Below, in pieces: positions 11,771-29,185 of a DNA stretch of 64,000 bases (positions are counted from its first letter, which is position 1; the number at the start of each line of letters is the position of its first letter). The translations under genes and the position numbers were made by a program. Location: assembly GCF_054482595.1 (NCBI RefSeq), contig NZ_CM137008.1. One strand, written 5' to 3'. The notes below the pieces were generated by a model. The model ran no database searches. It had not been told where the DNA came from and saw nothing but the letters and a program-made list of their open reading frames with translations.

Positions 11771-12841
11771 TTATTTAATCCGGGCCATCGCGTTTCTCAG
11801 TGCCAAATCTGCCTCTTCCGTTATATCCAGGCTTTTCTGCAATACCGCCTCTGACCGGGTCAGTGCCTGACGTGCTGCCAGCGGTTTCCGGATATGCTCC
11901 ATCGCCAGCATCGTGTCTTCATAGCCCTGCTGACGCCAGGCGTCGGTATGTGCCGATGTAAAACTGAGCAGACCGCCGCTGTTGCCACCATCACCTGCAT
12001 ATTTCAGCCTTTTCCGGGGACGGATCTCAAGGATTGTGGTGTCCGGAAAAGCCTGGCGATCCCATAAAGAACCGTCACTCAGATGCGTCACAATCACCAT
12101 ATTGCATCCGGCATCGACCAGAGGCGTCACAGGGGTATTTCCCTGCATATTTCGCCATCCTCCCATACCACCATCACCGAACATTGTCCCCTGAACCTCA
12201 CGGGGACGGAACAGCAGGGGCAGCGCGGCTGACGCAAGCAGAGCCTCTTTCTGCTGTCCGCGGGGCAGGCTCTGGATATGCTGAAAAACGGCGTTTTTCG
12301 TGGTTCCGACACCCAGTTCAGCACGAATGCAGTCAATAATATCCTGCATGCCCCCTTCTGTGGGGTACAGCGACACATACAGCGGTAGCCCGTCTGCCAG
12401 AGCATCAGTATCAAGATAATGATCCATCAGCGCTGTCAGGGGCTCATCTGACAACAACGGCTGAGCCATCAGATTGTCAAACCCGTTGATTGTCGATATA
12501 TGGCGAAGAAGCGTCGTAAGCAGTGCTCCTGCACGTCCGGGGATCTGGCAGAGGTTCATTGCCTGGAACAATTTTTTCAGCAATGAAAAGTAAACCAATC
12601 TGTTTACCGACAGCACCTGATTATTCCCCAGATGATCCCAGAGCGCCTCCAGGCGTACGGCAGCTTCTGACAGATCGGGAGAGGCCGCGATAATGGCACC
12701 ATTGAATGCGCCAATGCTGGCCCCTGAAACCATGCTGATCTGTGTACCACACTCTGCCAGTGCCTTAACCACTCCCGCCTGATAAGCGCCCACCGCCCCG
12801 CCACCGGACAGCACCAGCCCCGTTTTCATTTCTGTACTCAT
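11771..12841 (-). CDS. Patatin-like phospholipase
   Basis: GGGAVGAYQAG oxyanion-hole motif, GASIG (GxSxG) nucleophile, DGG motif (FGDGGMGG); start overlaps upstream stop (ATGA). Confidence 0.85.
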   Translation of the reverse strand: MSTEMKTGLVLSGGGAVGAYQAGVVKALAECGTQISMVSGASIGAFNGAIIAASPDLSEAAVRLEALWDHLGNNQVLSVNRLVYFSLLKKLFQAMNLCQIPGRAGALLTTLLRHISTINGFDNLMAQPLLSDEPLTALMDHYLDTDALADGLPLYVSLYPTEGGMQDIIDCIRAELGVGTTKNAVFQHIQSLPRGQQKEALLASAALPLLFRPREVQGTMFGDGGMGGWRNMQGNTPVTPLVDAGCNMVIVTHLSDGSLWDRQAFPDTTILEIRPRKRLKYAGDGGNSGGLLSFTSAHTDAWRQQGYEDTMLAMEHIRKPLAARQALTRSEAVLQKSLDITEEADLALRNAMARIK

Positions 12842-13743
12842 GCAGCCCCCTTCTGAAATATTTCATCGACCATACTTTCAGAGAGGCGTTCTGCAGAGCA
12901 GAGGCGAGGCATGCGAACCGGTAAGTGTTCTGCAGCCTGCGTGGTTGACCAGATCACCGGATGCTGCTCTTCACTGCACCAGTCTCCCAGCCAGTTAATC
13001 GCGTCATGCCACTCGTTATCTGCCTGCTCCCGGCCCTGACCACCAAGCCAGTCCAGAGTGTTCAGACGCACGGTTGCACTACCGCCACTCTCCTGTGCCA
13101 TCTGCGTTAATGCTTTATGTCTGAGAATATCCAGTAGCTGGTTAACCTGGCCTGTTTCGCCCTGACGTATCACATCACCAAACGCGCCCCAGCGAAGCTC
13201 TTCAAGTGCCACATAACAACGTCCGGCAGGGGAAAATGACGCATATCGCCCGGCGCTCCACCATGAGAATATCTGCTCAAGATGTAACTGCGCCCGCTGA
13301 ACCTGGTCAACACGGTGGAGTTTTTCTTCAAGATGATTCAGTTTATGGTGAACCTGATCGGCCAGGGTGAGTAACTGCTCCCGCGTATCTGCGGAATAAT
13401 GCGCCAGCCTGGCTGTATCACTGACCAGTGAACTGACCCTGTCGTTTACCCGGGTAATCGCGTAGTTTGTGGTGGCAAGTGACGTTGTCATCTCCGTCAG
13501 CCAGCGCAGGGACGCCTCAACGCCCTGTGCAAGCGACGCATTGATGGCATTCTGCCGTGCAGCGCCTTCGCCGGTCAGCCCCTCTTTTAAACGCCGGAAG
13601 AACGTGCGCTCTCCGGCCGTGCGGATATGCTCCTGTGCAACATCGATTCCGTTTGCGAAATCAACCACAAATTTTTCAGGAAGACAGGTGAGTACCTGAC
13701 ATACCCGGTTATCAGCAATTTGTTGAATAAATGGTGAAGTCAC
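12838..13743 (-). CDS. Hypothetical coiled-coil protein, middle gene of operon
   Basis: 301 aa, helical/heptad-rich, no recognised domain; ATGA overlaps with both neighbours. Confidence 0.7.
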   Translation of the reverse strand: MTSPFIQQIADNRVCQVLTCLPEKFVVDFANGIDVAQEHIRTAGERTFFRRLKEGLTGEGAARQNAINASLAQGVEASLRWLTEMTTSLATTNYAITRVNDRVSSLVSDTARLAHYSADTREQLLTLADQVHHKLNHLEEKLHRVDQVQRAQLHLEQIFSWWSAGRYASFSPAGRCYVALEELRWGAFGDVIRQGETGQVNQLLDILRHKALTQMAQESGGSATVRLNTLDWLGGQGREQADNEWHDAINWLGDWCSEEQHPVIWSTTQAAEHLPVRMPRLCSAERLSESMVDEIFQKGAA

Positions 13744-16136
13744 AGCATTGTCTCCAGCTCTTCCCTCAGCGCCTTACTGTCAGTAATGAGCTCAGGAACC
13801 CTTTCATTTAATGCCTGAAGTCGCCCGGTAAGTCGTTCCTGCGCCTGCTGATCGCGTTTATGATCCTCAGAGCTCTGAATCAGCGTGTTACGCAGTTGTT
13901 CAACTTTCTCCCTGAATGCGCAGAAAAAGGCATCGATTTCCTGGCGGACGGGCTGGTTAATATCCTGCTCAATGGATGCCTGCAGCTCCCCGAAATATGC
14001 CCGGGTCAGTGACATAACTTCCTCTCTGACCTTGTTGATATTGATCACGCTGCGACTCACATCCTCGTCATAGTTTTCCCAGCCCAGGTCACTGGTGCCA
14101 AACCATCGACAAACGGTTCCCCATACGCCACTCTGCCGACGGCGACGGGTGACGGTCTCCGTTCTTTCCTCCATAAGCGCACTCAGATTTATTTTTACCG
14201 CGAGCCGGGTCTGTAACTGGCTGACTGCCGGAAAACTGATTTTTACGGTAAAGCCCTCATCCTCCAGGCGGGCATTGATGCGACCGGCAATGTTTTCTGT
14301 GGCGTACAGGGCCGTGCCACGAAAACCTGTTTCAATCCCGCTGACGATTTTCTCCAGCTCAGGCCGGAACTGTGCTTCAGCCTCACGGTGCAGGCTGGTC
14401 ACGGTCGATTCGATTTGCGTCATCAGTTCAAGGGCTTCCCTGCGATCACTGAATTTTATTTCGGGGCTGTCCGGGGCAAAATCTCGTTTCCTGTAATCCT
14501 CCCGGCCCTGGTTGTTGATACCGGACCATTGAGAAATTTTCCCCCATAATCCGGACTGAGACCTTCGTTGTTCTGCGTCTTCTTCCTCCAGCATTTGCTG
14601 TTCTTTGCGTTTACCGCTTCTGAAATAGTCATTCAGCTCCTCTTCCAGTGAGGTGCAGACCCCCGTCAGTAATTCCCGGGTTTTAGTATCGATCTCCTCC
14701 ATGGCCATTCTGACATCAGTGGTCATCTGCTCCTGACAGTCCGCGATTTCCCGGATATCCGCAAGCAGGCTGGTGATATGCGACTGCAGTGACTGAATGC
14801 TTTGCTGTAGCCCCTGATGGCGTAACAACAGGTATTCACTGATATTTTCTGCATTCTGCATCAGTTTTGCGGCGGCAGAGTCAACCGCCAGTGCCGCAGC
14901 TCTGGAATGTGAGCTCTGTATGACTTCCGTTATCAGTTGATCGATAAGTGAGCCTTCCCACAGGTCTGTCGCCCCTTCAGTTGCCAGTTCACTGTCTTTA
15001 CAGACGTATTCTTTTTTCATGCAACCGAAGGCACCTCTGATAAAATCATCGACCCAGGCTTCATCAACAGGAAGGGTTCCGTTTTTCCGTAACTCATGAA
15101 GCGCACGGTTAGCCAGGTATGCCTGGCGTGAGGATCCGGGATAAACGCGGGAGGCGGGCAGCACATCGCTGTTCAGCATTGCCGGAACTTTCTGGCGTAC
15201 GGCATCTGCCCCATCGCCATTGCGGTCTTTCTCATCAAATTTATTGACCAGTACAAACAGGCGGCCGGCTGATACGTCAGCAATGGCATTAAGCTCTTTA
15301 CGGACGTCTTCATCCGCTTTTGAGTTCATCTGGGTGTAATCCATCACAGCCAGAACCGCAGAGGCTTTCTGCAGTTGATCCCGCATCATCACTTCCATCT
15401 GCGGTTGTCCGGCCTCATTAGGGCCGGGGGTATCCAGCAGTGTGAGTGTTCCCTGGCATGCATCCATCCCCACCAGATGGCTGAATTCCACGTCGATCAC
15501 CGGCAGTTTCTGCACTTCTGCGTATTCATCAAAAGGAAATTCAGTCCCCATTGCCGCAGCAAGACGAACCAGATCGTTTAACGATGCCAGTCCGGTAAAG
15601 ATTTCCTCCTCCCCGTGGTATTCATTTTTGAGCCAGCCATCATCCGTCAGAATATCCAGCAGTTCGCGGGTATCCCCGGTTTGCTGCAGGGTCTGTGCGA
15701 CCTGCTGTCCTGCCGGGGTGGCGAGTTTTTCCTGCAGTGTGATTAATAAATTGCGGACAGGCTGAATATGTTCCAGATGGAGAACCGGCTCAGTTTTTCC
15801 GGGAACGTGGCGGATGAGCGTCGGTACAGAGGTCATGGGGCGGTTACGGTTAGGCAGAATTTCCTGCCCCACAATGGCATTGATGGTGGTTGATTTGCCT
15901 GCTTTCATCGTGCCGACAACAGCCAGCACCATCTCCCTGCGGGCGGTTTTGATTTGTTCGCCCTCCAGCTCCTCAATTCTTTTCAGTGCTTTCTGTTTAT
16001 CAAAAAGCAGTCTGTTTTCGTTCTTACTGTCAGATAACACATCTGGCTCCTCAACCATTTGCCGGAGCAGATTAATGTTCAGTTGCAAAAGTCGGTCGGC
16101 TTCATCACAAAGCAGGGCGATGTTCTTTTCGTGCAT
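13740..16136 (-). CDS. Dynamin-like GTPase (bacterial dynamin family)
   Basis: 798 aa; G1 GTMKAGKST, G3 DTPG, G4 NKFD, long helical C-terminal region. Confidence 0.85.
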   Translation of the reverse strand: MHEKNIALLCDEADRLLQLNINLLRQMVEEPDVLSDSKNENRLLFDKQKALKRIEELEGEQIKTARREMVLAVVGTMKAGKSTTINAIVGQEILPNRNRPMTSVPTLIRHVPGKTEPVLHLEHIQPVRNLLITLQEKLATPAGQQVAQTLQQTGDTRELLDILTDDGWLKNEYHGEEEIFTGLASLNDLVRLAAAMGTEFPFDEYAEVQKLPVIDVEFSHLVGMDACQGTLTLLDTPGPNEAGQPQMEVMMRDQLQKASAVLAVMDYTQMNSKADEDVRKELNAIADVSAGRLFVLVNKFDEKDRNGDGADAVRQKVPAMLNSDVLPASRVYPGSSRQAYLANRALHELRKNGTLPVDEAWVDDFIRGAFGCMKKEYVCKDSELATEGATDLWEGSLIDQLITEVIQSSHSRAAALAVDSAAAKLMQNAENISEYLLLRHQGLQQSIQSLQSHITSLLADIREIADCQEQMTTDVRMAMEEIDTKTRELLTGVCTSLEEELNDYFRSGKRKEQQMLEEEDAEQRRSQSGLWGKISQWSGINNQGREDYRKRDFAPDSPEIKFSDRREALELMTQIESTVTSLHREAEAQFRPELEKIVSGIETGFRGTALYATENIAGRINARLEDEGFTVKISFPAVSQLQTRLAVKINLSALMEERTETVTRRRRQSGVWGTVCRWFGTSDLGWENYDEDVSRSVININKVREEVMSLTRAYFGELQASIEQDINQPVRQEIDAFFCAFREKVEQLRNTLIQSSEDHKRDQQAQERLTGRLQALNERVPELITDSKALREELETML

Positions 16137-19591: not shown

Positions 19592-21951
<2,360 letters not shown>

Positions 21952-22813
21952 TTTGTGGCCAGTCTTTCTGGCTGGCGGTTCAGGGGATGTTTTCTGGTTA
22001 TCGTGTACCACAAAGCAGGGATATTGCCCCGATAGTCACATTTCAGATTGATCGCGGTCTGAAGATGTGGCACTGAGGTAACGTGCTGGTGTCACTGGTA
22101 TTGCTGAAGTTATGGTTTTTCGGGGTCAGGTGAGCCTGTTGTGTGTATGCTTTTTGTTCAGGTCAGAGGGGGACTGTGTGGACAGCGGCTTTTGTCTCCG
22201 GGCATTCACGCCTGAACGATGAATGCGATTTTCAGCAATATTTGTCTTTGTGACACTCTCTGGTTGAGAAGCTAATGCGCGCCCCTGTTTCCACAGAGAA
22301 TGAGGCTTGCCATCAGCCGAAACATCAGTATTCCACGCCATACAGACGGCGCCTGACCATGTGCTGATGCAGGTAAAATGTTTCACTACAACTGTTCGGG
22401 TTGCTATGCAACGAAACAGCGATTCTCACGATCTTTAACTGCAACGTTTTTCCGCCTGAAAGCTGACTGCCTCCTGCTGAGGTGGGAGGCTATGATTCAG
22501 TGCGTTTATAGTCTCCGGGGTATGCATGTACCGGAGCATACCATTTCTGGTGGATAACAAGCCGGCACATTCAGACTGCAGTGAAGATGGAGGCACCTGG
22601 TTGTGAAGAACGTTTCTGCCCGTGGCTGCTTCGCATCATCAATGGTATTCATACCCGCTCAGAAATGACCGGGTGCTGAAGCCCTCCGTTATCGCGCAGT
22701 ATAATGACGTATATGATCTGTGGACGAGTGAGCGGCGTGCCTGATGTACGCCGCTATTACTGTATTTTACCACAGGGCTGGTTTTCTGCTGCCAGCCCTG
22801 TGGTTCTCAGACA

Positions 22814-23431
22814 TCAACTGTGAGCGGCATCAACCGATGTACGGTATGCCATAAGCACGTACTGATCCATCAGATTTGTCAGTGGTTCACTCTGACCCTG
22901 ACGTGCAATGATCCATTGCTCCAGATCTTTTTCTGATTTGTGTTTCAGGTTTTTCGTCCAGTCGTCAAGGCTGTTTCCGGTCATTAAGTCAAGCCAGCAG
23001 AGCCAGACCAGTTTGAGACGTAACTCCGTGCCGCCAAACTGACGGAAGAGGCTGATCAGTTTGTTTGCCAGAGAATGTTGCTTCAGGCGCTCACATTCAG
23101 ACAGCAGGATCCCTTCCAGCATCGGATGATGAACCAGCAGGTGTTCGCTGGTGCATAAATTCACCACCAGATCATCATCCAGGGACGGGGAGCTCCGTTT
23201 GTCCGGACCATAAATCAGCCGGTGCAGACTCTGGGGAACGATGGCAATCTCCGGTTTTTCGCCATTGAATGACACCCACCCGGGCGTCAGATTATGGAAA
23301 TAGTAGATATTCGGATGACACACGCCCCATGATACGGCGTGCCGGGTGAAGCCGGTCAGCCATTTCTGGTAGTTTTCATGGAGCAGCTCGTAACGGGTCT
23401 GATACTGTTGTTTCATTTTCATATTCCTCAC
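22814..23431 (-). CDS. Hypothetical protein (island backbone, downstream of alpA)
   Basis: 205 aa ORF, GTG start, no recognised domain. Confidence 0.5.
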   Translation of the reverse strand: MRNMKMKQQYQTRYELLHENYQKWLTGFTRHAVSWGVCHPNIYYFHNLTPGWVSFNGEKPEIAIVPQSLHRLIYGPDKRSSPSLDDDLVVNLCTSEHLLVHHPMLEGILLSECERLKQHSLANKLISLFRQFGGTELRLKLVWLCWLDLMTGNSLDDWTKNLKHKSEKDLEQWIIARQGQSEPLTNLMDQYVLMAYRTSVDAAHS

Positions 23432-23509
23432 GGGGGATAACAGGCAGCAGAGCGCCGCCGGCAGGCCGGAGATTGCGTCTGCTGTGGGCGAAGGGTTAGT
23501 GGTTAAAAA

Positions 23510-23716
23510 TTACAGACGGGACTGTGCAATACGCGCCTGCAGCCAGGCTTCCACTTCACTTTTCAGCCAGCGGGAGCTGCGCCCCATTTTGATGGGCGCA
23601 GGAAAGCCCCCATCTTTGATGAGTTTGTCAAACCACTTATCGGTAAGGCCGGTCAGTTGAGTGATAAACGCCATGTCGACCATCTGGTCATCCATCAGCG
23701 AAACTGGGGTAGCCAT
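23510..23716 (-). CDS. alpA: AlpA-family phage transcriptional regulator/excisionase-like protein
   Basis: 68 aa from internal Met (MATPVSLMDDQMVDMAFITQLTGLTDKWF...); track ORF 23510..23920 is N-terminally extended through a poly-G tract. Confidence 0.8.
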   Translation of the reverse strand: MATPVSLMDDQMVDMAFITQLTGLTDKWFDKLIKDGGFPAPIKMGRSSRWLKSEVEAWLQARIAQSRL

Positions 23717-23880
23717 GAGAATGTTCCTCCGGATGTTGTTAAACCAGCCGGTGTGGTCATGAAAACAGCGCGCCACCTTCACCGGCATAACAACCGGGGA
23801 GAAACGTAAAAAATAATCGGGAATGTGGCTGTCCGGAGATAAACGGGGGGATTGCGATGGCAGAGCCGTAGCGGAATCCC

Positions 23881-23894
23881 GGGGGGGGGGGGGG
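23881..23894. repeat. Homopolymeric G tract (about 14 nt) upstream of alpA
   Basis: Run of 14 G on plus strand about 165 bp upstream of the alpA start. Confidence 0.6.
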
Positions 23895-24845
23895 TTGCGA
23901 AAAGATGCTTCCGCACGCACGCGCGATAAAGAGGGGATAGTTTTCGTGAGGACAGGGAGAGAAGCAGGCGTTCTGATAATTGCAGAGTTGTTTTCGGAGG
24001 TGGTTACAGTGAGTCAGCCCGTTCCTGGCGAGCAGGAGACTGATATCACCGATGGGATAAGGTTGTCTGATTGGTATTATAAATATAAGAAGTCATCAGA
24101 GAGTAACGTAAAGGATTTGCCAGAATAACCTAAGAGAGTAAATCTCTCCGGTAACAGAGCGCTGTGAAGCATTCTGTATTAGAGTGCAGATACATGAACG
24201 CTGATGCGTAAAATCAGCAGTGACACGCCAGCTCCCCCTATGCCCATTCCTGTATAAGACATGAACTGAGTGTATTAATGCTTCTGCCCTGAGACTGAGC
24301 CGGTGAGTGAGGGGCTGAGAAATCCCTCTTGACACAGCTCTAACCAGAAATACTTCCCCGGTTGTTGCGGTGCGTCCGGATCCCCGATAACGGAACACTA
24401 AGGCTGTATTGCGGGACACCGGGTAAGTAGCAGCCCGTAAGGCGTTCTGTCAACGCCAGAAAAAATGATTTCCCACACGCGTTATAGACTCACTCCTGTG
24501 GACCTGGAAGCCCGTAACTCTGCGGTTGCCCACTGACTGACGGAACTGACCGCAAATTTTACGAGTGCGTGCTGGGCTTCAGTCTGGTCACCTGAGCGTT
24601 CGGTAACGGAGGCGCGGGCGGTAATAGGCTGATTTTCAGGTATTACCGGCTTACAGCGTGTGGTTGATATTGAGGGGCTGTGAGTTTCGCGTATTTGTCA
24701 GAAACCCAGACGAGTTTTCCTGTATGGGACGAAATAAGGCAGCGGCAATACCTGGAAAAATTTAATATGGTATGAAGGAGAACCTGTCGGTTACGCTTAA
24801 TATACCCGGTACACTGTCAGCTCAGGGGATACATGAACCGTTATC

Positions 24846-25049
24846 TCACCAGCTACACAGTATATACACACTGACGCTGACAGTAGTCAGCAGGACCACA
24901 ATAATCAGTGCCAGCAGTATGGTAACGATACGGTCTGTATTCCGGTAATAGCCGAAGGGGTCGACAGAACCACAATACGGGCAACACACTGTATTATGAG
25001 TAATCGCGTTTCCACAGTCCCTGCACTTCTTTTTGCGTATCACCATCAC
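24846..25049 (-). CDS. Small zinc-ribbon protein with C-terminal TM helix
   Basis: 67 aa: CRDCGN...CPYCGS then hydrophobic IVTILLALIIVVLLTTVSVSVYIL. Confidence 0.4.
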   Translation of the reverse strand: MMVIRKKKCRDCGNAITHNTVCCPYCGSVDPFGYYRNTDRIVTILLALIIVVLLTTVSVSVYILCSW

Positions 25050-25209
25050 TCCCTCCTCACAGCCTTACCCGTAACCGGTTTTTTACATTAAAAAAACAAC
25101 GCTGAAAATTCAACCGTCAGTCCGGAGACGACCGTTCGGGTTATCACAGAGTGCCTGAGACAGTGTCCTGCCGGAGGTCACTTCAGGGACTCTGCGCATT
25201 TTTTACGAC

Positions 25210-25815
25210 GTGGCTATTCCGTATGAACCATACGGAGATTTAACCATGACCTACAAATACAACCCCTTCTGGCAGCAACGTATTCGTGAGACGGTGCGGC
25301 ACGCACTGAATGTTCATCCCCGCCTGACGGCATTGCGGGTTGACCTGCGTTTCCCGGATGTACCGGCAGCAACGGACGCAGCTGTGATATCCCGCTTCAT
25401 CAATGCCCTGAAAGCCCGAATCGACGCTTACCAGAAACGTAAGCATCGGGAAGGTAAACGCGTGCATCCCACAACCCTGCATTACGTCTGGGCCCGGGAG
25501 TTTGGGGAGTGCAAAGGTAAAAAACACTATCACCTGATGCTGCTGGTTAACCGGGATACCTGGTGTCGTGCCGGTGATTACCGTGCTCCGGGATCACTGG
25601 CCGGGATGATTAAACAGGCGTGGTGCAGTGCCCTGGGAGTGGATGTCGGGTGCCATGCCACGCTGGTGCATTTCCCGGCCTGGCCGGCGGTGTGGCTGGA
25701 ACGCGATGATGACACTGGCTTTCAGCAGGTGCTGGAACGTGCTGACTATCTGGCGAAGGAACATACCAAAGCTCACTGCACCGGTGAGCGCAATTTTGGC
25801 TGTAGCCGGAGTTGA
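25210..25815 (+). CDS. YfjJ/YagK-family protein (inovirus Gp2-like)
   Basis: 201 aa resembling YagK/YfjJ family of CP4 islands; alternative start MTYKYNPF at 25246. Confidence 0.65.
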   Translation: MAIPYEPYGDLTMTYKYNPFWQQRIRETVRHALNVHPRLTALRVDLRFPDVPAATDAAVISRFINALKARIDAYQKRKHREGKRVHPTTLHYVWAREFGECKGKKHYHLMLLVNRDTWCRAGDYRAPGSLAGMIKQAWCSALGVDVGCHATLVHFPAWPAVWLERDDDTGFQQVLERADYLAKEHTKAHCTGERNFGCSRS

Positions 25816-26068
25816 GCACGACTGGCGCGCCAATACCCGGCAAACCAAAAGTATGGGTTGTTGTCTGGCGGCAACGATGTATCCACTCGCCCACTGACTG
25901 TTTTTTACGTCAGTGTTCCATTGTGTGACAACCACAGTGCTGTAACAGCAACCAGCCTGCTTTACCCAAACTCCAGTCCAGATTTTAACTGAACCGCCAT
26001 TCACACCCTGACCACGCTGCCCGTACCGGGACGGCTGTTGCCTGCGTGTCGTCTGGCGGCTGAGGAAT

Positions 26069-26476
26069 ATGACTATGTACGCAAAATCCTTTATCGCTCT
26101 TGATGGCAACGGACGTCTGACGGGCGCCCGTACTGCACAGGCCGCACCTTATGCTAACTACACCTGCCACTTGTGTGGCAGTGCACTCAGATACCATCCG
26201 CAATACGACACTGAACTTCCCTGGTTTGAACACACTGACGACAGGCTGACAGAGCACGGTCAACAGTGCCCTTATGTCAGGCCGGAGCGCAGAGAAATAC
26301 AGTTGATTAAACGTCTGCAGCAATTCGTACCGGATGCCTTACCCGTGGTGCGTAAAGCCAGCTGGCACTGCAGACAATGTCACCACGATTATTATGGGGA
26401 GCGGTACTGCACACACTGCCAGACCGGAGGATTCAGTATTCCCCGGACAACTCAGGAGGAAATATGCGAATTCTGA
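26069..26476 (+). CDS. Cys/His zinc-ribbon protein, CoiA-N-terminal-like motif
   Basis: 135 aa; CHLCG...PWFEHTD and WHCRQCHH...CTHCQTG motifs. Confidence 0.5.
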   Translation: MTMYAKSFIALDGNGRLTGARTAQAAPYANYTCHLCGSALRYHPQYDTELPWFEHTDDRLTEHGQQCPYVRPERREIQLIKRLQQFVPDALPVVRKASWHCRQCHHDYYGERYCTHCQTGGFSIPRTTQEEICEF

Positions 26477-26871
26477 ACTGTTATATGGCGAATGACAGCA
26501 AAGGCCATTTTGTTACGGCGAAAGAAGCAGCGAAGCACAACCGCCAGGACGTTTTGTGCTGTGTGTCCTGTGGATGCCCGTTAACACTTCAGCGGGGCAA
26601 TGACGGACAACCACCGTGGTTTGAACATGACCAGATGACTGTCGCTGAGAAAATCCTGCTGCGATGCACCTGGCTTGACCCGGCAGAGAAAGAGGCCCGT
26701 CGTTTGCATCTGCAGGGTATGACGGTTCCGGATTATACGGTGAAGGTGAGAAAGTGGTTTTGTGTGATGTGTGACGAAAATTATGAGGGGGAAAAGTGCT
26801 GCCCGAGTTGTGGTACCGGGGTATACAGCAGGGAGGGGGGGCAGGAGGGCAACTGGAAGGATAGGAACTGA
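26464..26871 (+). CDS. Cys/His zinc-ribbon protein, tandem paralog of preceding gene
   Basis: From internal Met with RBS aggagg; CCVSCGCPL...PPWFEHDQ and WFCVMCDE...CCPSCGTG; overlaps upstream gene by 13 nt. Confidence 0.5.
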   Translation: MRILNCYMANDSKGHFVTAKEAAKHNRQDVLCCVSCGCPLTLQRGNDGQPPWFEHDQMTVAEKILLRCTWLDPAEKEARRLHLQGMTVPDYTVKVRKWFCVMCDENYEGEKCCPSCGTGVYSREGGQEGNWKDRN

Positions 26872-27099
26872 GCGGTTCAGTCGCGGAAATCAGTTGCAGA
26901 GCTGTAATGATATCTCCGGGAGTGCTGCGTTGGTAGGGGCATCCCGGGATAGAGAAATTTTAGCACTTTGCCCTGAATGATTGTAGACGTCCCGAGTACT
27001 CGTACCGGTCTGAGTTATTACAGTTAGATATTCACTTTTTCTCCCGCATACTTCACATCTGTCAACGACGGATGAAAAGTGGTTCTTCCGCAACCTGGG

Positions 27100-28800
27100 T
27101 GGAAGAAAATGGATGAAACTTTCTGGCGAACAAGGATCTAAGCTGTTTTAAGTTATGGGCAACGCAATGCACTCTCTTAAGACACTTCTACAGTTACCTT
27201 GCGGATGGCGATGCAGTCGACAAATTATTAGCTCTGACGGTATAACCCTCCATCTCCACGGAAAACGCAAAACAGCACAATGTCCTGAATGCTTTAAGCG
27301 TAGCGACTCTGTTCATAGTTGTCGTCGGCGCCGGATACAGCATCTACCCTGCTCAGGGCAGACGCTATGGCTTGTATTTTCCGTCCGCCACTGGTACTGC
27401 CGTAACCCGGCTTGTTCACGTAAAATTTTTGCCGAGTCGCTTGCTCCCTTCGCCAGTTCACACCAGCAGTCTTCACAGGCGTTACAAAATTAACAACGTC
27501 AACTGGGATTAATAGCTGGAGGTGAGGCTGGAAAACGGGCTGCAACGGCAGTGGGTCTCCGTTGCAGTGCTGATACTCTTCTTCGCAGGCTTATCAATAC
27601 CCCGGAGACGAAACAGTCAGGCGCGCCTCATGTCGGTATTGATGAGTGGGCGTGGCATCGGGGCCACTGCTGCGGTATGTTAATAGTCAATCCTGATACT
27701 CACCGTCCCCTCGTCCTGCTTCCCGGCCGTGATCAGCGTACGCTGGCGACCTGGTTCAGAAAATATCCGGAAATACAGGTTGTCTCGCGTGATCGCAGTG
27801 GAGTCTATGCGACAGCAGCACGTGAAGGTGCACCTCAGGCCAGACAGGTGGCCGATCGATGGCACCTGCTAAAAAATATTGGTGATGAGCCTGAACGAAT
27901 GATGTACAGACATATGCCTCTGATACGTCTTGTTGTCAGAGAGTTATCACTGAAGAAATCACCTGAGCCAGAAATATCTGTGCCTGTAGCATCGCTCCGT
28001 CGTCTGGAACGCCTTAAACAGCACATCCGCAAAAAACGGCATCAGCGTTGGACAGAGGTTATGGCCCTGCATAACAAGGGATGTAGTTTCAGGGAAATAT
28101 CCCGTATTACAGGCCTGTCGCGAGTGACAGTCAGTCGCTGGGTGGGTTCAGGAACATTCCCTGAAATGTCAACCAGGCCTCCAAAGCGAGGGCTTCTGGA
28201 CCCATGGAGGGAGTGGTTAAAAGAGCAACGAGAATGTGGTAATTATAACTCCGGCCGGATATGGCGGGAAATGGTGGCCAGGGGGGTTACAGGCAGTGAA
28301 ACCATCGTCAGGGATGCTGTTGCCAAATGGCATAAAGGCTGGATCCCACCGGTTACTACTGCCGCAAGACTTCCTTCAGTGTCACGGGTAAGCCGCTGGT
28401 TGATGCCCTGGAGAATAATCAGGGGTGAAGAAAATTATGCTTTCCGATTTATTAGTCTGATGTGTGAAAAAGAACCGGAGTTGAAAATAGCGCAGCAACT
28501 GGTACTCGAGTTCTACCGTATTCTGAAAACCTAAAATAAATCACAGCTAAGCAGCTGGTTCACTCGGGTCCACGAAAGCGGCTCAGCAGAACTTCGGTGC
28601 GTAGCTGCGGGGATGGAAGCTGATGCTGCGGCTATATGTGAGGCAATCAGCAGTCGCTGGAGTACTGGTGTTGTCGAAGGTCATGTAAATCGCCTGAAGG
28701 TGCTGATACGCCAGATGTATGGTCGAGCCGGACTTGAACTACTTAGGCGGAGGGTAATGAGTCCACTGGCATGAAAATCTTCACCTAGGTTGAGGAAGAG
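27100..28800 (+). mobile_element. ISL3-family insertion sequence, degenerate
   Basis: Transposase split over three frames (27155..27493, 27551..28534, C-terminal ...VNRLKVLIRQMYGRAGLELLRRRV ending about 28774). Confidence 0.6.
27155..28774 (+). pseudogene. ISL3-family transposase, frameshifted
   Basis: N-terminal zinc-finger part, DDE core and C-terminal tail lie in different frames. Confidence 0.6.
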
Positions 28801-28817: not shown

Positions 28818-29146
28818 GTGACAGTATGGCCTTTATGTACTCACTTTGTTACCGGTAGCTGGATCATCACTACCGTGCCGCAAATGGTGGTGAACAGCAT
28901 CAATTGTGGAATGAATGTTGCCGAAGCGACCAATGCGCCTCGTTTCCACCATCAGTGGTTGCCGGACGAGCTGCGTGTTGAAAAGGGTTTAGTCCGGATA
29001 CGCTCAAGCTGCTGGAAGCAAAAGGTCAGAAAGTGGCGCTGAATGAGGCGATGGGCAGCACGCAAAGCATTATGGTTGGGTCGGATGGTGAGTTGTACGG
29101 CGCATCCGACTCGCGCTTGGTGGATGATTTAACGGCGGGGTATTAA
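28818..29146 (+). pseudogene. ggt: gamma-glutamyltranspeptidase 3' fragment
   Basis: ...ATNAPRFHHQWLPDELRVEKG then, in another frame, ...GSDGELYGASDSRLVDDLTAGY* matching Ggt C-terminus; about 100 codons only, frameshifted. Confidence 0.7.
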
Positions 29147-29185
29147 TTGACATCCCCCGGCGCAATGTGCCGGGGGATAATGGTT

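Follow-up and report, generated by a model that had tools for sequence, protein, structure and literature searches.

CoiA, a nuclease of the PD-(D/E)XK type, is needed for D-loop resolution in natural transformation and carries an HFAH motif. In satellites of the P4 type, a small zinc-finger activator is found together with an AlpA-family protein (Vis), and Delta of P4 consists of an Ogr-like unit duplicated in tandem. CP4-44, CP4-57 and SRL-like elements belong to the CP4-type islands, which most E. coli and many other Enterobacterales carry, often with phage-defence genes in the variable cargo; a backbone of this type also underlies pathogenicity islands such as SRL. A CoiA-domain protein has been described as an anti-phage system of E. 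coli (PMC9519451). In Pseudomonas, the tmRNA-site islands I23, I44 and I55 are composed of genes for a tyrosine integrase, AlpA, an inovirus Gp2-like protein and RadC together with variable cargo, and in most elements of this type the cargo includes phage-defence systems (bioRxiv 10.1101/2024.08.29.610337). Since this island family moves with a jumbo phage, backbones of such a type can be mobile (bioRxiv 10.1101/2024.08.29.610337).

The window analysed here, a stretch of 64,000 nucleotides of E. coli chromosome, includes the CP4-44 island site, located between the dacD/sbmC/yeeA side and the cobUST/ldtA/asnV side. Two small genes, referred to as A ('MYAKSF' type) and B ('MRxLKCYLA' type), are aligned in tandem on the plus strand of this island. 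The full ORF of gene A extends from 26069 to 26476, and the upstream ATG at 26069 would yield 135 aa. The preferred start is most likely the ATG at 26075, because it is the RefSeq start, it is preceded by a Shine-Dalgarno-like GAGGA (26062-26066, 8 nt 5' of this ATG) and the homologs begin with MYAKSF. Gene A defined in this way from ORF, translation and RefSeq annotation (26075..26476) encodes 133 aa, and the translation of gene B (26464..26871) gives 135 aa. The two genes overlap by 13 nt (26464-26476), and at their junction (26454..26476, plus strand) the Shine-Dalgarno sequence of gene B (AGGAGGA, 26454-26460) is embedded in gene A, 3 nt before the ATG of B at 26464, with the TGA of A at 26474-26476. 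The A protein is identical to RefSeq WP_000270974.1 ('putative zinc ribbon protein') and the B protein to WP_001221623.1 ('zinc-ribbon domain-containing protein'). In BLASTP they are 31% identical to each other over 118 aa (E=3e-15), a resemblance well beyond chance, and A and B are paralogs. The first-pass annotation of this DNA had pointed to adjacent paralogous genes with a 13-nt overlap, which the ORF coordinates and this alignment bear out, and had placed them between a YfjJ-like gene and an ISL3 element, in agreement with the flanks found at 25210/25246-25815 and 27155-28774.

Comparison with the orthologs of Hafnia, Siccibacter and Superficieibacter gave dN/dS values of 0.13-0.19 for A and 0.19-0.22 for B, indicating that both are maintained coding sequences under purifying selection. 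Except for the two PWFEH-coding stretches, which form the sole relevant direct repeat, no notable repeats or hairpins were detected. No Rfam family matched over 22000-28000, and no conserved hairpin, iteron or RNA element that might serve as a target was found near A and B in the window. On the plus strand, neither promoter-like nor terminator-like sites were found between the upstream Rep-like gene and A or B, the only promoter-like sites of this strand being located upstream of the Rep-like gene; the counts of both promoters and terminators were no higher than in shuffled sequence.

Both proteins consist of an N-terminal DUF7828 domain, a linker helix and a C-terminal Zn_ribbon_11 domain. 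In Pfam, DUF7828 (PF25165) matched A with E=2.8e-31 (model positions 1-87 of 87) and B with E=7.7e-31 (2-86 of 87), covering residues 4-89 of the proteins, and it was detected in all of 16 diverse relatives. Zn_ribbon_11 (PF11682, formerly DUF3279) matched A with E=1.3e-9 and B with E=7e-18. The putative metal ligands lie within C31-x2-C34-G, P49-W-F-E-H53, C65 and C99-x2-C102-x9-C112-x2-C115 of A, and within C33-x2-C36-G, P51-W-F-E-H55, C68 and C100-x2-C103-x9-C113-x2-C116 of B. In an alignment of 20 divergent homologs, the CxxC, the WFEH, one more Cys and the W-x-C-x2-C-x9-C-x2-C-x2-G segment are invariant or nearly so; the segment with the four Cys is invariant in this alignment and in a second one. 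From these invariant Cys and His residues, zinc binding by A and B is predicted, with two putative sites per chain, and the ligands of the N-terminal finger would probably be Cys, Cys, His and Cys. Based on these profile matches, A and B can be assigned as full members of the already catalogued DUF7828 plus Zn_ribbon_11 family, and not as a new system. Searches of NCBIfam, PHROGs, PADLOC and PDB sequences gave nothing significant for A or B, and a literature search for DUF7828, Zn_ribbon_11/DUF3279 or the two WP accessions found nothing relevant. In UniProt, some family members bear the names 'DNA-directed RNA polymerase beta subunit', 'ribosomal protein L37AE' or 'Competence protein', all of which are automatic mislabels of a zinc ribbon.

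When 1.84 billion representative proteins were scanned in full with HMMER, 283 relatives were obtained. Among the best 150 of these, all were small, mostly about 130 aa, and none was fused to an enzymatic domain; in A and B themselves, no nuclease or other enzymatic domain accompanies the zinc domains, and no nuclease family appeared among the Pfam matches even at E<=10. One variant of 238 aa (P0201) has an extra DUF7828-like N-domain without a ribbon, fused ahead of a complete B-type protein, and it is the sole multi-domain variant noticed among the 31 representative sequences read.

A resemblance of the N-terminal domain to that of CoiA was seen at two levels. In the Pfam search, CoiA_N (PF25164) gave a sub-threshold match to B (E=0.35), and at E<=0.1 it matched 6 of 16 diverse members (best E=1.3e-3), always over the stretch from CxxC to WFEH; the sister family DUF7830 showed the same weak match pattern. 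The AF2 model of B had a pLDDT of 72 when B was modelled alone; once the alignment was deepened, the N-domain exceeded 90, and the fold relatives of this domain were CoiA N-domains, not Ogr. This similarity of the modelled N-domain to CoiA_N, which is new here, is seen at the level of the predicted structure, and homology of the two fingers is putative. A and B use a CoiA-like finger without being members of the CoiA family. As for the first-pass annotation, the two metal-binding-like motifs that it saw in each protein (CxxCG...PWFEH and a C-terminal Cx2C...Cx2C) could be located to the residues given above, and the latter corresponds to Zn_ribbon_11. Its likening of the first motif to the CoiA N-terminal zinc finger is supported by the recurrent weak CoiA_N matches and by the structural similarity. 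It was also right that no nuclease domain follows, since the two zinc domains account for the whole of the 133 and 135 aa. An assignment to some well-characterised family, which it had named as the finding that would count against it, did not result, because DUF7828 and Zn_ribbon_11/DUF3279 are both families without known function.

The distribution of the family was then determined at several levels. The 2.2-kb region around A and B is present at a coverage of at least 80% in 3080 of the 5426 complete E. coli genomes. A degenerate-codon DNA pattern for WFEH...WxCxxC-x9-CxxC, applied to one genome per GTDB species, detected 54 loci, all in Enterobacterales except for two contigs of one 'Collinsella' MAG. 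These contigs (L060 and L061) were rejected as real hosts after L060, the one checked, proved to be 99.9% identical to E. coli, indicating mis-binning, and a 'Veillonella sp.' MAG (P0013) was likewise judged to contain mis-binned E. coli DNA as a binning contaminant. The DUF7828/Zn_ribbon_11 family was thus found only in Enterobacterales, which is a new observation here. No member was detected in 50,697 phage records, and on plasmids the family is rare (32 of 72,556), mostly on Klebsiella megaplasmids. In Budvicia aquatica DSM 5075, at least seven separate loci of the zinc-protein gene (L027-L033) are located on different contigs, implying that this one strain carries many related islands. In E. 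coli K-12, the module is absent from CP4-44, and CP4-6 carries a Rep-like gene without the zinc proteins, the same being presumably true of CP4-57. The zinc proteins are thus not obligatory partners of the Rep-like protein. The CP4-6 genes yagL, yagM, ykgV and yagN were considered as possible family members and found to be unrelated.

Synteny was analysed for the 29 non-redundant loci in which the upstream sequence extends over 2.5 kb or more. The zinc-protein gene is clustered with a Rep-like gene (29 of 29 loci), AlpA (28 of 29) and often a gene for a protein of about 200 aa, here called X, and all the cluster genes are on one strand in 27 of the 29. Two types of Rep occur in these clusters, one being the YagK/YfjJ 'inovirus Gp2' type (PF11726) and the other a divergent type that is REP_ORF2-G2P-like, and H-hydrophobic-H and Y-x-x-K motifs are common to both. 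The link to Rep and AlpA holds with both divergent Rep subfamilies and also on Klebsiella megaplasmids, an IncFIB/HI1B plasmid of Klebsiella showing the identical layout. On one side, the cluster diverges from a backbone operon (YeeP-like GTPase, DUF932, antirestriction, RadC, DUF987 and CbeA/CbtA), and variable cargo adjoins its other end, with an integrase beyond this cargo in some of the loci. A hotspot of cargo lies just downstream of the zinc-protein gene (loci L005, L006-L008, L009 and L012-L017), including DUF3375 (which we take to be Wadjet-like), SMEK/CTD10/MC6/DUF2326, a HATPase with an Eco57I-type methyltransferase, McrB, Dpd, and SNF2/AAA/S8-peptidase/methyltransferase genes. Whereas the cargo is completely different from locus to locus, the zinc-protein gene is retained, and several loci have a Rep gene between the two. 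The family is a backbone companion of the Rep-like and AlpA control genes in CP4-type islands, and this strict synteny is described here for the first time.

The tandem arrangement of A and B is also conserved. Tandem pairs were found in at least nine genera, the list including E. coli, Hafnia, Siccibacter, Superficieibacter, Serratia, Budvicia, Buttiauxella, Yersinia, Trabulsiella and Klebsiella, and A is always the first and B the second gene of the pair. The spacing between the two is either an overlap of 13 nt or 10 nt or a gap of 62-134 nt. The junction GAGG-N-ATGCGnnTnCTGAA, with the stop of A inside ATGCGnnTnCTGAA, is kept in Hafnia, Siccibacter, Superficieibacter, an Enterobacteriaceae MAG and a Klebsiella plasmid; such a conserved junction with an internal Shine-Dalgarno sequence points to translational coupling of A and B. 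Both the A type and the B type commonly occur alone as well, and a third subtype sits between X and the Rep gene, indicating that the duplication is old and that the two copies have been kept together in a fixed order. The conserved order of A and then B, together with the coupled type of junction, is new here.

In the window, the module differs from its form in other genera. The Rep-like gene of the YfjJ/YagK 'inovirus Gp2' family (25210..25815, plus strand; RefSeq start 25246) was assigned by its RefSeq name and by phrog_25019 (E=6.5e-41). Its product carries H-Y-H and Y-L-A-K motifs and gives a weak match to a replication-initiation PHROG, and PF11726 was detected in its orthologs. This gene is 65% identical to the Rep gene heading a Rep-AlpA-A-B-Rep' cluster in Hafnia, and the protein, which appears rolling-circle Rep-like from these motifs and matches, is most likely encoded by the operon partner of A and B. 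The AlpA-family helix-turn-helix regulator (23510..23716, minus strand; RefSeq annotation) is 66-74% identical to the AlpA genes (PF05930) preceding zinc-protein genes elsewhere. X (22814..23431, minus strand; about 200 aa), a gene that follows AlpA in many related clusters, shares 60% identity with the gene that follows AlpA in the Klebsiella locus L015. Protein X has no Pfam match even at E<=10, and its occurrence after AlpA across genera (L012, L015, L018, L023 and L048) marks it as an uncatalogued, strongly syntenic family.

The AlpA-X pair of the window (22814-23716, minus strand) is located 1.5 kb upstream of, and on the opposite strand to, Rep-A-B (25210-26871, plus strand). The 259-nt spacer that separates the Rep-like gene from A contains no remnant of AlpA, and none of Rep was found downstream of B, the Rep' of the Hafnia-type cluster being gone in the window. 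Directly after gene B there is an ISL3-family transposase pseudogene with an internal stop (27155-28774, plus strand), at the position where other genera have a second Rep-like gene or defence cargo. The module in the window is trimmed and rearranged. Its split into AlpA-X on one strand and Rep-A-B on the other, together with the absence of the AlpA that normally stands between Rep and A, suggests that the E. coli island either underwent an inversion or combines two types of module.

Several other features of the same island were noted. A truncated fragment of gamma-glutamyltransferase is located at about 28850-29150, after the ISL3 pseudogene. IS100 (IS21 family; istA/istB) is inserted in the island backbone at 20084-21885 (plus strand), beside truncated AAA-ATPase fragments. 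The genes for a dynamin-family protein (798 aa), an RdcB-family protein and a patatin-like phospholipase (11771-16136, minus strand) form a three-gene block that could be cargo or a defence-like module. Between the AlpA/X pair and the Rep-like gene, a 67-aa ORF (24846-25049, minus strand; WP_001297900.1, hypothetical) carries a CxxC...CxxC zinc-ribbon motif and a hydrophobic, membrane-spanning-like tail; as the third small zinc-ribbon gene of the control region, it shows no sequence relationship to A and B.

Based on these observations we can propose, tentatively and at somewhat less than an even chance, that A and B are non-catalytic zinc adaptors, probably recognising DNA and possibly forming an A:B heteromer, of a control module for island excision and replication. 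This module would be composed of the YfjJ/YagK-type Rep-like protein, AlpA and X, with A and B as its backbone members. The CoiA_N-like finger may recognise a site or structure of the island DNA, for example at an origin, within a control region or at an attachment site. Through the ribbon and the helix, the proteins might oligomerise, as A:B where both are present and as homo-oligomers where one type is single, or alternatively contact the Rep-like protein, and the resulting complex would aid or gate the island's excision and replication. We infer DNA binding, the heteromer and any role in island mobility. In favour of such an adaptor, the only known relatives of the finger sit on DNA-processing nucleases, the tie to Rep-like and AlpA genes extends across two Rep subfamilies, and the pair is apparently translationally coupled in a family whose best 150 relatives show no enzymatic domain. 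The proposal is weakened by the charge of the proteins, with a pI of about 7 for both A and B (family medians 7.4 and 8.1), since such near-neutral proteins differ in charge from most small DNA-binding proteins; this applies equally to the suggestion of the first-pass annotation that they may be small nucleic-acid-binding factors of the island. It is also weakened by the AF2 model of an A-(G4S)6-B fusion (59-row alignment, paired plus unpaired), in which the domains were confident, the pTM was 0.39 and no confident A:B interface was seen, by the Rep-like gene of CP4-6 that has no zinc proteins, and by the failure to find a DNA target nearby. A more specific form, in which A plus B would be a nuclease-less DNA-structure recognition complex of CoiA_N type, acting as partner of the YfjJ/YagK HUH Rep-like protein so that CP4-type islands begin a rolling-circle replication coupled to their excision, or are mobilised, is improbable as it stands.

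The same genes could instead encode zinc-finger transcription regulators like Ogr of P2 and Delta of P4, acting through RNA polymerase or promoters on genes of the island, of its cargo or of a helper element. The position of A and B in a control region, beside AlpA (a family of transcriptional activators) and directly upstream of variable cargo, fits this role, as does the analogy with P4 satellites, where Vis is combined with a zinc activator and the duplication within Delta loosely parallels the pair of A and B; the near-neutral charge would suit protein contacts. Since Ogr_Delta (PF04606) is not among the Pfam matches listed at E<=10 for A or B, the fold relatives are the N-domains of CoiA and the genes are missing from all of the phage records searched, we consider regulation of this kind possible yet rather doubtful.

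Downstream cargo of the DUF3375, Dpd, SMEK/CTD10/MC6, methyltransferase/ATPase and McrB types, bordered by the zinc-protein gene in other genomes, raises the question of whether A and B are accessories of defence or counter-defence, either as a sensor or regulator for this cargo or as an anti-defence factor on entry into a new host. The antirestriction genes of the island backbone and the anti-phage CoiA-domain protein of E. coli (PMC9519451) would be in line with such a role. Against it, the zinc proteins are constant while the cargo is swapped, with the Rep gene intervening in several loci, the antirestriction genes belong to the divergent operon, and PADLOC gives no match for A and, as the best for B, PDC-S64 with a non-significant E=0.035 over 30 ribbon residues; a defence function is quite unlikely. 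A two-gene addiction pair of toxin-antitoxin type might be considered for small, overlapping and translationally coupled genes on a mobile island, but A and B are paralogs of the same architecture, each type is commonly single and neither Pfam nor PADLOC shows a toxin or antitoxin family, making this very improbable. Even less probable, to the point of being negligible, is that A and B are decaying, non-functional ORFs: the island in the window is indeed heavily eroded (ISL3 pseudogene, IS100 insertion and truncated genes), but the low dN/dS (0.13-0.22), the intact state of all metal-ligand residues, the junction conserved across genera and the retention of the 2.2-kb region in 3080 complete E. 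coli genomes at the coverage given above all indicate maintenance. If A and B are the DNA-recognition subunit of the module, they would offer a handle on island mobility and the first function for a CoiA_N-type finger outside CoiA, and if the more specific complex with an HUH Rep-like protein were true, it would provide a mobility mechanism for a defence-rich class of islands present in most E. coli.

In comparison with CoiA, both the PD-(D/E)XK core (PF06054) and the CoiA C-terminal region are missing from A and B, and a C4 zinc ribbon is present instead. The first His of the HFAH motif is replaced by Trp in A and B, with a downstream Cys conserved in its place. The genetic setting also differs, being competence regulons for CoiA and island control genes of Enterobacterales for A and B. 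The double ribbon of the YfgJ type (Zn_ribbon_6, PF07191) gave weak matches to the C-terminal ribbon of A and B (E=0.011-0.045), and at E<=0.001 it matched 1 of 16 diverse members; only one ribbon aligns, and the N-terminal domain is unrelated. Ogr and Delta are, by analogy, small zinc proteins of integrative or satellite elements with an AlpA/Vis-type regulator, as A and B are, but the spacing of the cysteines differs and A and B are absent from the phage records searched. The Pseudomonas islands share the same island-level layout, but no zinc-ribbon gene is mentioned for them (bioRxiv 10.1101/2024.08.29.610337). From the Pfam/RefSeq family defined by PF25165 and PF11682, A and B differ in nothing: they are an ordinary backbone gene pair of the island, correctly described by the first-pass annotation, in a family that was already catalogued. 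To the description of this family we add the structural similarity to CoiA_N, the restriction to islands of Enterobacterales, and the synteny of Rep, AlpA and X with a coupled pair in the order of A and then B.
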